NCBI GenBank assembly: GCA_044870765.1
Contig: JBIOZG010000019.1
Coordinates: 1 to 42,839, forward strand
Reading direction: 5' to 3'
Length of the DNA: 42,839 bases
Source: Nitrososphaeraceae archaeon
GTDB lineage: Archaea > Thermoproteota > Nitrososphaeria > Nitrososphaerales > Nitrososphaeraceae
The notes below the pieces were generated by a model. It did no database searches. It saw only the letters and a list, made by a program, of their open reading frames with translations, and was not told the origin of the DNA. This document shows, piece by piece, positions 17,040 through 28,154 of the stretch (position 1 is its first letter; each line of letters starts with the position of its first letter). A program made the translations under genes and the position numbers.

Positions 17040-18623
17040 TTGTATTGTTATTTGGCGGGGTGTCATTTGTTGCTATTTGATAAGAGTAATATCACAAAAA
17101 CTGAGGTACAGCATCATTTAGCTCCAGCCAAACGATTACCTTGGTGGTATGAACATTACAAGAGAATAAGACTATTCCCATGGTGGGCTCGGTATAATAT
17201 CGGTCTTACCAAAGAAGCATCTCATAAGGACAAAATACTGGAATTAGTCGCAAAAATGGATTTTGATAGGAAGGCTACATCCAGAATTATAAGACATGCA
17301 GTTTCTGAATTTTCTAAAAATGGTTTAGGATCAGATTATCCCGGTTATCACACCATCAACCATAATCTTGAAGTTGCATATATTTCATTGATGTCTGCAA
17401 TAAATCAAAAGTCAGAAAATAAAATCTTTCTAAAGGATATTAAAAATCTTTTTGTGGCTGCGTTATTTCACGATTTCGATCCAAGAAAAGAATTTGAGAA
17501 ACCCAATGAGGATAATATTGAGCTTTTTATTAGAAACGATCAAAAATTAGCTAAACTTATTCAGTCTTTCGAAATAGATCTGAATATAGTGATTGCCCTA
17601 ATACACAGAACAACGTATCCATTTTCTGGGGCCCAAAAAGAACATGCGCTAAAAAGAATGAATGAATTATTCAACCTGTCGGGCATAGATCAGGATGATA
17701 CCGATACCAGGGAACATTACGAGAAGCTTGGACTATTCTTGTCTATTTGTGATCGCATTGCCGGATATTGTTTGGGTGATTTTAATTATGCTAAGGAACT
17801 GGCAAGACGCAACGCCCGTGGTATTGGATGGCATTCTCAGGTAATCAATGAAAAGTCTGTAGAGTACTTTGCTGCGCTTAAACAAAGGGATGACAAAGAT
17901 ACCTTTGAAATGGTAATACAGAGTTTACCCGTTGGATACAGGAAGAATTTTTTTGATAATGTTGAAGGTTTTAAGGAGGCATGGGAAAGAGAACTCGAGA
18001 TTAAAGCCTCGTTACGTAAGAATGAAATTAGTTTTGTAACAGTTGTTGAAAATACTATCAGTGAAGGAGATAAGATAAGTACGGATTTATGTGACACAAT
18101 TATGAAGATACGTCATGAATATTGTTCTCCTATGAATTTTCATGATAGAGAATTTCGTAAGTCAATTTGCGATCCAAGTACGATTCTCATAACTCTAAGA
18201 ATCAACAGTGATGCTGGACAGATTGTTGGGTATGTAAAAGGAGGTCCTTTGGAAAAACACAAGCCTAGGCATTCCGGATATGATGAAAGTTTAGGTAAAA
18301 TGAATACAATCCATATGGAATCTCTCAGAGATGGTACCTTGGATCAAAATTTAGGTAAAATGAATTCAGTTTTTATGGAATGGATGGCAATTAAAACTGG
18401 ATATCTTGGAGAAAAAGGAGGCCACATGCTCAGATCTGAATTTCTTAAAGAGGCAAGGAGGCGTGATTACAAATATGTCACAAGCTACTATCAAAGAGAA
18501 CTTATTATTAATAGAAAGAATAAAGGAGAACCGATTGAGATAGTTCAACAGTATGATGCTGCTATGATTGATTATTATAGAATAGATCTATCTCAATTTG
18601 TTGAATCAATTTCAATACAATAA
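17040..18623 (+). CDS. HD-domain phosphohydrolase fused to GNAT-like C-terminal domain
   Basis: GYHTINH...AALFHDFDP...SICDRIAGY; C-terminal IVGYVKGGP...GYLGEKGGHMLR..FL..ARRRDYKYV. Start uncertain (TTG 17067 possible). Confidence 0.8.
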   Translation: MYCYLAGCHLLLFDKSNITKTEVQHHLAPAKRLPWWYEHYKRIRLFPWWARYNIGLTKEASHKDKILELVAKMDFDRKATSRIIRHAVSEFSKNGLGSDYPGYHTINHNLEVAYISLMSAINQKSENKIFLKDIKNLFVAALFHDFDPRKEFEKPNEDNIELFIRNDQKLAKLIQSFEIDLNIVIALIHRTTYPFSGAQKEHALKRMNELFNLSGIDQDDTDTREHYEKLGLFLSICDRIAGYCLGDFNYAKELARRNARGIGWHSQVINEKSVEYFAALKQRDDKDTFEMVIQSLPVGYRKNFFDNVEGFKEAWERELEIKASLRKNEISFVTVVENTISEGDKISTDLCDTIMKIRHEYCSPMNFHDREFRKSICDPSTILITLRINSDAGQIVGYVKGGPLEKHKPRHSGYDESLGKMNTIHMESLRDGTLDQNLGKMNSVFMEWMAIKTGYLGEKGGHMLRSEFLKEARRRDYKYVTSYYQRELIINRKNKGEPIEIVQQYDAAMIDYYRIDLSQFVESISIQ

Positions 18624-19342: not shown

Positions 19343-19957
19343 GTGTCTTTTCCAAGCGATATTTTTTCAAGAATGTTTACTGACAAGAATACACAGTTAC
19401 TATACCCCAAAGAGGATGTTCCGGCTCATGATACAGAGGACATCGTACAGACGAACATTTTCAATGTTATGTTGAATAGAAGATCACAAAGAAAATTTGA
19501 GAATAAAGTGGTGGAAGAATGGAAGCTTGAAATGATTTTTGCAGCCGCTGATACTGCACCTACTGCAGGAGGCTTCCAAGGTTTCGAAATATATCACATA
19601 AAAAATGAGGAAATTAAGACAAAGCTGGTCGAGGCAGCCAACAATCAACCATATGTGCATGCACCAGTTGTACTTGTATTTTGTATAAATCCCAAGAGAA
19701 TAAAATTAAATTTTCCACCAGACATGATCAGAAAATTCTCTCAACAAGATGCCACTCTTGCAGCGGCATATTCCCAACTTGCTGCACATGCTTTGGGATT
19801 AAGCTCCATATGGATAGGCATGTTTGATGAAATTAAAATAAAGGAAATATTAGGTATAGATCTCTCGCCATCCTCTATTCTTTGCCTAGGATATCCAGTA
19901 AAGATGCTGGTGCCAAAGCCAAAGAGGAATCTCAAGGACCTGATCCATGAAATTTAA
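19343..19957 (+). CDS. Nitroreductase family protein
   Basis: RRSQRKF, APTAGGFQ, QDATLAAAYSQLAAHALGLSSIWIGMF, LCLGYP. Confidence 0.92.
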   Translation: MSFPSDIFSRMFTDKNTQLLYPKEDVPAHDTEDIVQTNIFNVMLNRRSQRKFENKVVEEWKLEMIFAAADTAPTAGGFQGFEIYHIKNEEIKTKLVEAANNQPYVHAPVVLVFCINPKRIKLNFPPDMIRKFSQQDATLAAAYSQLAAHALGLSSIWIGMFDEIKIKEILGIDLSPSSILCLGYPVKMLVPKPKRNLKDLIHEI

Positions 19958-24951: not shown

Positions 24952-25641
24952 ATGAAGACTCTGGATTTCCTCAAAAGGGATGAGCTCGAAAAATATCTGG
25001 TTCAAAGTGGAATAAGGATTGATGATTATGTCAATACTGCAATGGATATGTCCACTGAAGTCCATAGTGGAATAAAAAGGGAAGACAATCAATCTCCATT
25101 TCTTGAAACACACATCTGGCCCGTTACGAGAGACGTAGTTGAGCACTATCTTACTGTTAATCGAAATATAACTAGTGTAGAAATAGTTTCCTCGATATTA
25201 CATGATGTAATGGAAGATAATGACAGAATACTCGATTTGTACAAGACCAAGGAGTACGGTTTTGATGCATATCTCAAATATAGATTTGGCAACAGAGTCT
25301 ACGATATCTGTATGGACCTAAAGATAAAACCACTCGAAAATTTCTCTGGAGATAATGATCAGCAAAGACAACTAGCCAGATTCCATAATTACTGCAAAGG
25401 ATTAAGCTCTGCTGACTATGATATAAAAGTCATAAAACTGGTTGATAGAGCGAATAATATGAAATTCATTAGTAATATGTCAAAGGTAGAAGGAAAACTA
25501 GTAAATAATAAAATTAAAAGATATCTACGTGAGGCTGAGGATTTTTACCTTTCCTTTGCATTACTGGAACCTTCTACGAAGGATCTATATCTAAAACTTA
25601 GAGAATCGTATGAAAGTCTCAAATCGTTACGCATAAGCTAA
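24952..25641 (+). CDS. HD-domain hydrolase, RelA/SpoT-hydrolase (Mesh1/SAH)-like
   Basis: H..IKR....PFLETH, ILHDVMED, RFGNRV, VIKLVDRANN motifs. Confidence 0.82.
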   Translation: MKTLDFLKRDELEKYLVQSGIRIDDYVNTAMDMSTEVHSGIKREDNQSPFLETHIWPVTRDVVEHYLTVNRNITSVEIVSSILHDVMEDNDRILDLYKTKEYGFDAYLKYRFGNRVYDICMDLKIKPLENFSGDNDQQRQLARFHNYCKGLSSADYDIKVIKLVDRANNMKFISNMSKVEGKLVNNKIKRYLREAEDFYLSFALLEPSTKDLYLKLRESYESLKSLRIS

Positions 25642-25838
25642 ATATTTAGTTAGAAAAGTTTCATAAATCATATTTCGTGCTTGTTAGAGATATCTCAATT
25701 AGAAAAAGGTAATGAAGTTAGTGTCTTTATCGGTTATTCTAATTGCAAGTTCAGAATTTATATTTACATCCGAAACATGTTGTGGCAGTTATAATATTGT
25801 CTCGTCCACATTTAGGGCCACCGGGATCAGAGCCAGAC

Positions 25839-27137
25839 ATGGCAAGAACAATGGTTCCTCCTCCAAGCACTGGCAGCGGATCAATGAAGAGTCTGAAACT
25901 AAGATTTCCAAAGAGCACTGCCTACAATAGAGGAAGCATTTACGTCGTTCATATGCTAAAACAGATCTGCAAACAATGCGAGAATCAGATACCTGCATTT
26001 GCATTGGAACCCGTCCTGAAGGCAACGGAAGAGCTGGATGTTATCTTTCGACAGAGGCGTAAAGGTTTGATCATAACCCAGAGGAAGAACCTCATTGTAA
26101 TCCATGCAGACAGGATACGGACCTTTGGAAACAGGTATATGCTGGAAAGCGATCCCGATGGCTCCAGTATTGGTGTTGCGGTTACAGGTTCTGCCAGATT
26201 GCACGATTTGTTCATTGATGTTTGCAAAAGCGGGAATGTCATTATGAGTTACAAAGGCCAGAAAAAGAAAGCTCCCGATGAGAAAGAGAGTGTGGTCGAA
26301 ATGCAATTTTCAATAATTACATCAAATGAAATCGACAGCGTTTACACGTATTATTACACCGTTCGTAAGGATCATTTGAAAAAGGCAGAATTAGACTCCT
26401 TGAGAAAAATGGAACTCAAGATTAGCCGACTCTCGCTTTCTCCAGAGCCCTATGTAATGACCGGCGAGGGTAGAGCCTGTAAAATTACGGCAAAGGAATT
26501 CAAAAAGATGTTTGGAGTCAAGTTGCTAAAGGCACCTGCGATAGCAGACGATCGCTATACACAGGATCTGAAAAACATCAATAATTCATATCGCAGGTTG
26601 CGTCCATATATCGACGGCCACTGTTCCTTTGACGAAGGACTCAAAAGTGACGACCTCCGTTACGTCTCAAAAAAGTCGCTGCTGGGCAAGATCCTGGGTC
26701 AATTTCACGCCGGCAAAATGCACCTGCCCGGGGTTGTAATTGTCAGGGTAAACGAGTTGGTCGGAAACGGGTTGGTAGCCGGACAGTACATCGCACCTGG
26801 AACGATAATAGGAGAATATAGTGGAGCGATTGTAAAGGTGGCTCCAATAGCGACTAATGAGAACATGGATAACACATATTTTGCGCCCTATTCTACAGAT
26901 GAAGTTCCCAGTAGCGAGATGTTTGTTATAGATGCAAAAAAGGCTGGAAATCCTACTAGGTTCATTAACCATTCAAATGATAATTCAAACGCTGTATGGG
27001 TGCCTGTCTTTGATGGAGAAAAATTTCGTTTAATAGTTGCGGCTACAAAAGCCATCCCAGACGGCAAACAGATTCTTTTAAAGTACCGTTTCAGTTACTG
27101 GTTAAATCCCCGCATCCCAAGCCCGGTCCCTCTTTAG
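25839..27137 (+). CDS. SET-domain protein-lysine methyltransferase with long N-terminal extension
   Basis: GNGLVA, GTIIGEYSG, IDAKKAGNPTRFINHS, ATKAIPDGKQILLKYRFSYW are the canonical SET motifs. Start ATG 25839 or 25884. Confidence 0.9.
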   Translation: MARTMVPPPSTGSGSMKSLKLRFPKSTAYNRGSIYVVHMLKQICKQCENQIPAFALEPVLKATEELDVIFRQRRKGLIITQRKNLIVIHADRIRTFGNRYMLESDPDGSSIGVAVTGSARLHDLFIDVCKSGNVIMSYKGQKKKAPDEKESVVEMQFSIITSNEIDSVYTYYYTVRKDHLKKAELDSLRKMELKISRLSLSPEPYVMTGEGRACKITAKEFKKMFGVKLLKAPAIADDRYTQDLKNINNSYRRLRPYIDGHCSFDEGLKSDDLRYVSKKSLLGKILGQFHAGKMHLPGVVIVRVNELVGNGLVAGQYIAPGTIIGEYSGAIVKVAPIATNENMDNTYFAPYSTDEVPSSEMFVIDAKKAGNPTRFINHSNDNSNAVWVPVFDGEKFRLIVAATKAIPDGKQILLKYRFSYWLNPRIPSPVPL

Positions 27138-27590
27138 CATATCCATATTCCATATGGTATGACATGAACTATGCCAGACTGTCCGCATTAGCTTCCCTAC
27201 AATACCTCTTATTGCTGCCTACATATCACACAGCCTTCCATTACCATCATGTATGACAACTAGAGAACTCTAACATTTTATTTATTTAGTCACCAGAATA
27301 ATAAGGCCGACTATCAGAGTCGCAGTTGTTAAGATTAAGAAAGATGGTCCATTTAGAGAGGTCGTGAGGGTAGGTCGGCATATAACGTGGTACGTGGTAT
27401 AGATACTATGTACATCTACCGACTCTTAAACTAGCGTATCTCCAAGTGATTGAATATACCTTAGTATGTTTTGAAGTGTCATTTGTTCTTCAGGATAGGA
27501 TAGGATAACATGGAAATAGTCAAAATAAAAAGGCAATAAACTTTAGACTTGAAAGATATTCTATAATCTATATTTTTTACTTTGTACCTA

Positions 27591-28154
27591 TTAGTTAGGA
27601 ATTGTATTGTTAGATGCTGTCGAAGTCATATTAATTTCCGTTTCTGGTAATCCTGAAACTATTTGACCACGGATTTCTCCATTCTGAAATTCTCCTGAAT
27701 GAACATTTACATATACTACCCCATCGCTCATAAGACCGACAAGCTCGGAGAGTTCCTTACCTTTCAGAGGACCTTGCAAGTCATTCTGTGTTATATTTCC
27801 ATTCAATGATATTGTTGAGTTACTACCGTTTTCAGCAGATTGTTGTCCAGATAAACTAACTATGATATCACCATTTTGTCCGGCACTGCCGTTATGTATA
27901 TGCGCTCCAGTTATCTCGTTCAGGCCAGTCAGGTTAATCCAATACGATACTTGTGTTCCATTGTCGTTGGTTTGGAACTTAGCCCATCCAGTTGCACTCG
28001 AATCCGTTGGAGGAACTTCTTCTTTGCCCGATAGAGTCGCAGAAAATGTCTCTCCCTCCTGTGCTTGAAGTGAGCCCAATGACCCGGCGACTGCACTAAT
28101 TGATATAATTGCAGCTAATATGGTTAAAATGGATAACATGTGTTGTTGTGACAT
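27591..28154 (-). CDS. Secreted CHRD-domain protein
   Basis: Signal peptide; ATLSGKEEVPP, GAHIH, YVNVHS...GEIRGQI. Confidence 0.92.
   Translation of the reverse strand: MSQQHMLSILTILAAIISISAVAGSLGSLQAQEGETFSATLSGKEEVPPTDSSATGWAKFQTNDNGTQVSYWINLTGLNEITGAHIHNGSAGQNGDIIVSLSGQQSAENGSNSTISLNGNITQNDLQGPLKGKELSELVGLMSDGVVYVNVHSGEFQNGEIRGQIVSGLPETEINMTSTASNNTIPN

Follow-up and report, generated by a model that had tools for sequence, protein, structure and literature searches.

A predicted SET-domain methyltransferase gene that probably moves as a single-gene cassette among soil Nitrososphaeraceae

The SET gene and its predicted product

The DNA analysed here, referred to as the window, is the whole stretch of 42,839 nucleotides from contig JBIOZG010000019.1 of a Nitrososphaeraceae archaeon (assembly GCA_044870765.1; genome G000), and it carries at 25839-27137, on the forward strand, a gene for a SET-domain protein of 432 amino acids that was delimited as an open reading frame (ORF), by a Pfam match and by comparison with orthologues. 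This protein (P0001) was the query in the searches described below. The host genome possesses archaeal amoA (395 bits) and is that of an ammonia oxidizer, as the original prediction, a note made from the DNA sequence before any database search, had claimed; the closest named loci are those of Nitrososphaeraceae. We consider it probable that the gene, an intact one for a predicted methyltransferase, behaves as a single-gene cassette of ~1.45 kb which soil Nitrososphaeraceae have recently exchanged by horizontal transfer, and that it did not come directly from Chlamydiae.

The Pfam SET model (PF00856) matches residues 309-416 of the protein (54.5 bits, E 1.7e-14, cut-off 22.4), and in the genome-level search P0001 (56.5 bits) was the sole SET match in the 2.0-Mb genome. 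The motifs VGNGL (308-312), GEYSG (325-329), RFINHS (374-379), Y416 and SYW (419-421) are all present and no cysteine occurs within residues 296-432, so that a post-SET Cys cluster is absent; on both counts the original prediction stands. G309/G311, N377-H378-S379 and Y416 align with KMT2D, and the alignment with KMT2C/KMT2D matches the GxG, which in SET enzymes binds S-adenosylmethionine (SAM), as well as the NHS motif and the catalytic Tyr. Across 27 family members that are 43-89% identical to P0001, the motifs show little or no variation, and residues G309, G311, E326-Y327, N377-H378-S379, Y416 and Y420-W421 are invariant. The frame contains no stop codon and no frameshift in the window, it is open in 10/10 aligned orthologues, and the ratio of non-synonymous to synonymous divergence (dN/dS), 0.28-0.56 for the gene as a whole, is lower for the SET part (0.16-0.33) than for the N-terminal part (0.32-0.88). 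The original prediction had raised the prospect of an inactive enzyme; the catalytic residues are intact, and the gene is best read as an intact, selectively maintained one for a SAM-dependent protein-lysine methyltransferase, an activity predicted from the protein sequence.

The longest form of the ORF opens at a TTG at 25743 and ends at 27137, and the 432-residue form runs from ATG 25839 to the same stop. ATG 25851 is probably the conserved start, for a product of 428 amino acids, because the codon equivalent to 25839 is TTG in 8/10 aligned genus orthologues and TAG in loci of the G061 type, and because many database homologues of P0001 are 425-429 amino acids long. Two antisense ORFs lie inside the gene, at 25956-26306 (116 amino acids) and 26667-26972 (101 amino acids) on the reverse strand; they recur in several orthologues and are probably a by-product of GC-rich conserved sequence. 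No Rfam family was matched within 25000-28000, and a hairpin directly 3' of the stop codon was unsupported (-1.6 kcal/mol, 0 compensatory pairs among four sequences).

Three parts can be distinguished in the product, all encoded on the forward strand. An N-terminal domain (residues ~10-200; 25866-26438), recognized from an AlphaFold2 (AF2) model built on the family alignment and from region searches, is followed by a pre-SET helical segment with an EF..MFGVKLL motif that bacterial short SETs also have (residues ~201-295; 26439-26723; alignments and AF2 model) and by the SET core with its C-terminal tail (residues 296-432; 26724-27134), which holds the GxG, GEY, RFINHS, Y416 and SYW...P.P.PL features and no Cys. 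The isoelectric point is 9.66 for the N-terminal 200 amino acids and 9.55 for segment 201-295, and the SET core is neutral. P0001 contains the RQRRK and KGQKKK patches, and the claim of a basic N-terminal region of ~200 amino acids that resists assignment has been borne out, as no relatives outside the family were found. With P0001 as query, 121 clusters at 43-92% identity were recovered, nearly all (among the best 120 of the 121) of ~420-440 amino acids or truncated fragments; the few named ones are labelled Nitrososphaeraceae or Nitrosopumilales archaeon. Among the best 150 matches of a HMMER search of 1.84 billion representatives were at least three full-length 50% clusters (P0099, P0122, P0121) together with fragments, and all others span only residues ~206-432, with E 1.6e-16 or weaker. 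A search with residues 1-205 gave 104 matches, all of the same family as P0001. For the length band covered and the 150 best HMMER matches, the N-terminal domain therefore has no detectable relatives in other architectures, and the Atlas gave no usable match for it. The divergent member P0121 had no match in metagenome contigs, and an alignment-based metagenome scan yielded 43 loci, with no close relative of the divergent members (P0108-P0122, 43-57% identity) among them. One further homologue, P0010, is 96% identical to P0001 over residues 1-205 and 88% overall, a possible sign of intragenic recombination between alleles.

The AF2 model on the family alignment has a mean predicted local distance difference test score (pLDDT) of 64; a single-sequence model (pLDDT 31.5) was discarded. 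For residues ~10-200 a strand, two helices, an antiparallel sheet of ~8-9 strands and a final helix are predicted with moderate confidence (pLDDT per 10-residue block 55-91, mostly 62-91). A fold search (VIA) with this N-terminal part returned generic beta-sheets only, namely outer-membrane barrel segments, phage baseplate parts and OspA (Z <=6.7), and Foldseek against PDB and BFVD gave SET matches only among the matches listed, a list that such matches can fill. For model range 199-432 VIA returned SET enzymes at Z 6.5-7.7 (at Z 7.7 with a root-mean-square deviation of 4.2 over 182 aligned residues), and Foldseek matched G9a/GLP with probability 1.0 and E 5e-5, in a model whose residues 328-382 have pLDDT <50. 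By sequence, the solved structures matched were KMT2C/D, MLL, G9a/GLP, EZH2, SETD2 and Legionella LegAS4 (E 1e-6 to 1e-3). The eukaryotic KMT2/MLL, G9a/GLP and SETD2 enzymes are the best of these by sequence (E ~1e-6) and by fold, and share the SAM-binding and catalytic residues with P0001; in contrast to them P0001 lacks pre-SET and post-SET zinc clusters and partner-binding modules, and identity is ~14-29%.

The insertion and the other sites occupied by the gene

The gene sits on a segment of 1,814 bp (25629-27442, forward strand) that is flanked by an HD-domain gene and a CHRD gene. In the closest relatives, G016 and G022, window position 25628 joins straight to 27443 or later, in G016 at the junction CTCAAATC|ATTGAATATACC, so that the segment is an insertion here; the comparison with empty sites in relatives that the original prediction had called for has thus located one. 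The insertion has changed how the HD gene ends, in its final three codons (RIS and stop here, NIP and stop in G016). A contig from run X17 joins 25625 to 27449, which corresponds to the empty-site form and is a weak hint, its shorter side being 27 nt; contigs from run X10 lack coverage at 25564-26200 and are uninformative.

Most relatives that carry the gene hold it elsewhere. In eight genus genomes it lies beside a 271-amino-acid BirA-like gene, in six with a membrane-protein gene on the other side, and this site is empty in G000, where the two genes are adjacent on contig C5, and in the non-carriers G030 and G019. In G010 the gene is found ~7 kb away from the window's site, between homologues of window genes 17040-18623 and 19343-19957, and G002 and G061 hold it in further contexts; clustering of the flanks of all loci, a few of which are the same record fetched twice, separated 9 contexts on the upstream side and 11 on the downstream side. 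G016 has a full copy and, elsewhere (G016:C26; L012/L118 3427-3607), a relic of a second copy, 183 nt that are 87% identical to window 27005-27187 and so cover the last 44 codons and the 3' flank. Direct repeats of 40-54 nt (91-98% identical) with a spacing of 1440-1456 nt bracket the gene in loci L135, L006 and L008. One copy of the repeated core is present at the empty BirA site of G000, and the window's own insertion is without such a repeat. We propose that the cassette would integrate by recombination at short repeats. In this genome it lies on the 1.8-kb insertion, and the site used in most of the other carriers is empty.

A contig with a foreign-looking composition might be taken for an assembly chimera or a contaminant, but this is, as far as contigs can show, hardly conceivable here, because independent metagenome contigs bridge both junctions. 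Contigs from a 2017 rhizosphere run cross 25628/25629 (record 25, covering 25596-25868) and 27442/27443 (record 30, covering 27153-27900), and a contig from a 2025 run crosses the right junction, so the check on the junctions that had been asked of the original prediction came out in its favour. Moreover, the locus is shared by other metagenome assemblies, nine metagenome contigs falling in the same upstream context cluster (that of the HD/CHRD locus) as the window; comparison with the window showed the arrangement of this locus directly for L123, L120 and L128, and the flanks are syntenic with genus relatives.

A second form of the same locus, represented by metagenome contigs L120, L121, L122, L124, L126, L128 and L156, has 1,054 nt more upstream of the gene (L120 3275-4328, between the HD and SET genes), and its SET proteins are 96-97% identical to P0001. 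The additional sequence encodes a 63-amino-acid ORF that looks 4-oxalocrotonate-tautomerase-like from features of its sequence, and a 118-amino-acid ORF with two CxxC pairs. When the two forms are aligned, that of the window looks like the product of a deletion between short similar sequences (CAGAGC..AGA.AT). In four other contexts, those of the L120 type included, an AT-rich motif, TTAAATGAAATAC.CAGAGCGAG, precedes the start, and this motif is missing from the window and from L123, L125 and L131. One explanation for the missing motif is that the deletion, in fusing new upstream DNA to the gene, removed the native promoter and left a copy that is silent or decaying. We regard this as rather unlikely, as the reading frame shows no damage and has counterparts of 99% identity in L123 and L125, which come from independent metagenomes, as another AT-rich stretch lies ~45 nt upstream, and as the assignment of the promoter is itself inferred. 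An origin from mRNA (a retro-copy) was suggested by the finding that similarity to the copies in the BirA context begins at the start codon, and was rejected when four other contexts proved to share ~25-30 nt of upstream sequence.

The upstream neighbour (24952-25641, forward strand) is weakly HD_4-like, with 21.2 bits against a Pfam cut-off of 27.2, and the downstream neighbour (27591-28154, reverse strand) encodes, by Pfam, a CHRD-domain protein; the latter has at least six paralogous matches in the genome (among them on C1, C46, C6 and C28) at 40-63% identity. By DNA similarity a conserved 3' flank (27138-27229, forward strand) accompanies the gene in several other contexts, the similarity ending at 27175 in G010, 27214 in G002 and 27233 in G061, with a loose contig end at 27229. 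Within the insertion lies a dispersed repeat of ~100 nt (27274-27372) with ~80% identity to copies in the genome (C49:2807-2906 and C36:14166-14258). In G010 the SET gene is directly preceded by a sequence related to this repeat (L002 1421-1474 matches window 27261-27311), and the repeat may mark recombination sites.

Probable recent exchange and the ancestry of the SET core

That the gene is GC-richer than its neighbours, as first noted from two spot counts, was confirmed across the window and the genome. Sliding windows over 26001-27000 have a GC content of 0.436-0.450, compared with 0.26-0.42, mostly 0.28-0.39, in the rest of the window. Against 1301 crude ORFs of at least 150 amino acids from the genome, the gene has a GC of 0.441 (mean 0.371, sd 0.028), a value reached by 15/1301, and a GC content at third codon positions (GC3) of 0.467 (mean 0.316, sd 0.036), reached by 3/1301; GC3 is high in all three parts of the gene (0.47, 0.53 and 0.42). 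The GC of the SET gene is 0.39-0.48 at every locus, irrespective of the host. The most GC-rich ORF of the genome, G000 C54:20611-21405 (GC 0.575, GC3 0.638), is likewise foreign-looking.

Between G000 and seven genomes the synonymous divergence (dS) of the SET gene is 0.15-0.52, compared with 1.1-2.8 or saturated values for the BirA-like and membrane genes, so that between subgroups SET dS lies 3- to 10-fold below both flanks; only in G016 are the two alike (0.17 vs 0.21). The copy at locus L119 has 79% amino-acid identity to P0001 and a proportion of synonymous differences (pS) of 0.28 to the window's SET gene, and it stands among genes with a GC3 of 0.53-0.74, including a DEAD-box helicase gene whose product is 71% identical to that of genus g35 and 54-58% to those of the window's genus. 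Because SET dS is low relative to the flanks, because a copy at pS 0.28 is found in a GC-richer host and because repeats flank the unit, the proximate transfer is read from these comparisons as one from archaeon to archaeon. Since the GC of the gene is intermediate and its dS contrasts with that of the flanks, transfers of recent date between Nitrososphaeraceae that differ in GC account better for the anomalous composition; the raised GC would then be a consequence of mobility, an intermediate composition being kept in AT-rich and GC-rich hosts alike. Another possibility is that the gene was inherited vertically from the ancestor of the genus, with repeated loss and rearrangement, and that its high GC and low dS reflect synonymous constraint from RNA structure or antisense ORFs. 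Within L006-L011, at one locus, SET pS does track flank pS, as expected of vertical descent within that group, and the antisense ORFs recur in orthologues. However, the dS contrast between subgroups, the L119 copy in a far GC-richer host with a helicase best matching another genus, the precise presence or absence of the gene at two sites, where the empty ones in G000 and G016 are reciprocal, and the direct repeats around the unit all run counter to this account, which we regard as improbable.

The distribution is patchy. With P0001 as query, 12/40 genus genomes matched (10/23 of the high-quality ones) at 72-88% identity, and none of 24 genomes from the order's other families did, so that the gene is not, as the original prediction had feared, widespread among ammonia-oxidizing archaea. 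The generic Pfam SET model matched 24/201 genomes of the family and 11/164 of its other genera; ten of these 11 matches were short frames or fragments of 84-180 amino acids, and the long form was found only in G131, an assembly of 650 contigs with 6% contamination. Unpublished genomes (G020, G034, G095, G133 and G152) enter the genus and family counts only as non-carriers or generic matches. Class-wide, 44/401 genomes have a SET match, mostly of 130-190 amino acids, so that SET domains as such, which the original prediction had called rare in archaea, are not rare in this class; the restricted distribution concerns the long architecture only. A small SET family (~130-190 amino acids) is scattered through the class, with a SET match in 7/11 genomes of family f10. 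The small Nitrososphaeraceae proteins (seven sequences) have 155-180 amino acids, NHSCxPN and a post-SET Cys motif. P0001 has neither NHSCxPN nor the C-terminal Cys cluster nor a length of ~150-180 amino acids; the small proteins were not recovered with P0001 as query at E 0.001 or better, and score 21-27 bits on the subfamily profile.

Outside the family, the closest proteins are ~200-240 amino acids long and have in common, in an alignment of 23 sequences, a pre-SET F..FGV.Y..L, GN.TRFINHS and a YW..R..P..L tail, and look-alike clusters in the Atlas are mostly Chlamydiota. A scan for loci, with one genome per species and a pre-filter for GNxTRFINH that favours the chlamydial-type subfamily, found 344 relatives, and the best 80 of these comprised 12 of Nitrososphaeraceae type (77-91% identity) and 68 bacterial ones (27-39%), of which 45 are labelled Chlamydiota in the tree. 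Identity to bacterial proteins in the HMMER search was 31-43%. A quick tree of 109 rows, from which duplicates (L002-L013 and L094-L102), L019 (identical domain) and L110/L111 (no profile match) were left out and which included 22 hand-chosen representatives out of 150, was beaten by a constrained search, and reliance is placed on a careful tree of 48 rows, a hand-picked subset. In that tree the long archaeal proteins are monophyletic (support 100/99, starred) on a stem of 1.09 and are sister to two Bdellovibrionota (86/81, not starred). They fall outside an 18-row clade dominated by Chlamydiota (99/96, starred), and the small Nitrososphaeraceae SETs lie across a branch of 2.13. By motifs and similarity we assign the SET core to the chlamydial-type subfamily of bacterial short SETs, several donors and directions of transfer being conceivable, and this bacterial affinity is older than the recent mobility.

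The original prediction had gone from a resemblance to chlamydial SETs to an acquisition. The resemblance stands, in that pre-SET and tail motifs are shared; an acquisition from Chlamydiae is not supported. A recent direct transfer from Chlamydiota of a SET gene of the nuclear-effector type would fit these motifs and the dominance of Chlamydiota among the nearest non-archaeal loci and Atlas clusters, but the locus list had been pre-filtered in favour of that subfamily, identity is at most 39-43%, the Chlamydiota-dominated clade excludes the archaeal one across a stem of ~1.1 changes per column, and the N-terminal 200 amino acids are absent from all bacterial relatives found. Furthermore, as ~120 full-length archaeal clusters span 43-92% identity, the fusion of the N-terminal domain to the SET core appears old within archaea, and we think such a transfer very unlikely.

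Several points weigh against the reading of an intact gene of bacterial affinity that has moved as a recently exchanged cassette. An approximately unbiased (AU) test did not reject trees in which the long and small archaeal SETs are united or placed next to the outgroup (p 0.84), and a constrained tree uniting them had the higher likelihood, both being long branches; the trees thus fall short of a bacterial origin for the SET core, and the two may share descent at depth. The window insertion has at its ends no inverted or direct repeat of at least 12 nt and carries no transposase or integrase, its long ORFs being the SET frame and three frames within it (one of 72 amino acids on the forward strand and the two antisense ORFs), so that it lacks the transposase gene and terminal inverted repeats of an insertion sequence and the mechanism of mobility has to be inferred from other loci. 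At L119 the flanking repeat is of 10 nt (spacing 1441 nt), which may be due to chance, and the host was assigned from one flanking gene. The dS values come from our own Nei-Gojobori script and from two flanking genes only, with saturated values imprecise. The SET core is poorly modelled at residues 328-382. Finally, expression here is uncertain, as the AT-rich motif was apparently lost with the 1,054-nt deletion relative to the L120-type loci, and contigs from two RNA libraries cover the gene, for which carry-over of DNA is possible.

Candidate substrates and possible roles

The chlamydial-type SETs (Chlamydia trachomatis NUE, C. pneumoniae cpnSET and their relatives) are the nearest subfamily to P0001 by HMMER, Atlas and locus search, and share with it GN.TRFINHS, the pre-SET and tail motifs and the absence of post-SET Cys. 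In contrast to these single-domain proteins of ~200-240 amino acids, P0001 is twice as long and carries an orphan domain at its N-terminus; identity is 27-43%, and its position in the tree is outside the Chlamydiota clade. Published passages describe methylation of chlamydial Hc1 by cpnSET and of host histones by NUE, so that the subfamily is known to act on basic chromatin proteins, and methylation of the chromatin protein MC1-alpha by Go1-SET (PMC3980110). Go1-SET, of Methanosarcina mazei, is by its published description an archaeal SET lysine methyltransferase, as P0001 is predicted to be; G000 has no MC1. Legionella LegAS4/RomA has a similar SET core (PDB 5czy, E 2.4e-5) and its family model NF043024 of NCBIfam (AnkI/LegAS4) gives P0001 54.1 bits, far below the cut-off of 550 bits; ankyrin repeats are absent and the N-terminal domain is another one. 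As the host is a free-living archaeon, a role as a secreted effector is not expected.

We propose that the C-terminal half (residues ~200-432), a pre-SET helical segment with a chlamydial-type SET core that lacks the post-SET zinc cluster, would carry out methylation, and that the N-terminal half (~10-200), a basic, beta-rich and family-specific domain, may select or tether the substrate. The host genome encodes one histone-fold protein (C7:13003-13185) and two Alba proteins (C36:30016-30204 and C22:9862-10050), and our best guess is that the substrate would be an abundant basic DNA-associated protein such as the host histone or Alba. Another possibility is a role in conflict or defence, in which the enzyme would methylate proteins of viruses, plasmids or competitors, or would be part of a selfish addiction-like module, and not act on host chromatin. 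The patchy distribution, the mobility of the gene by itself and the relaxed constraint on the putative targeting domain (dN/dS up to 0.88) would be compatible with this. On the other hand, no defence-system model of PADLOC was matched (0 families), nothing in PHROGs was significant (best E 0.026), the viral-contig scan found no relative of the SET protein, no partner gene is conserved across contexts and dN/dS stays below 1; such a role seems fairly improbable.

To our knowledge, archaeal chromatin lysine methylation is known from few systems, none of them in ammonia-oxidizing archaea. A limited literature search, judged by titles and abstracts, found nothing linking SET domains with Nitrososphaera and, for Thaumarchaeota, nothing relevant. 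The family offers a testable candidate, one enzyme with three obvious substrates in the same genome (the histone and the two Alba proteins), with natural carrier and non-carrier strains available and a domain without known relatives. As far as we know, gene movement among ammonia-oxidizing archaea is poorly understood, and the SET gene provides a clean marker, one that can be dated, for recent gene flow among lineages of soil Nitrososphaeraceae whose GC differs strongly. It is perhaps conceivable, although we hold it to be doubtful, that the gene represents an archaeal mobile unit of a kind not described before, ~1.45 kb made up of promoter and gene without a recombinase, which integrates and excises at short repeats and spreads a chromatin-type methyltransferase with a new substrate-targeting fold across genera of ammonia-oxidizing archaea; if so, carriers would differ from non-carriers epigenetically, or in their resistance to viruses or plasmids.

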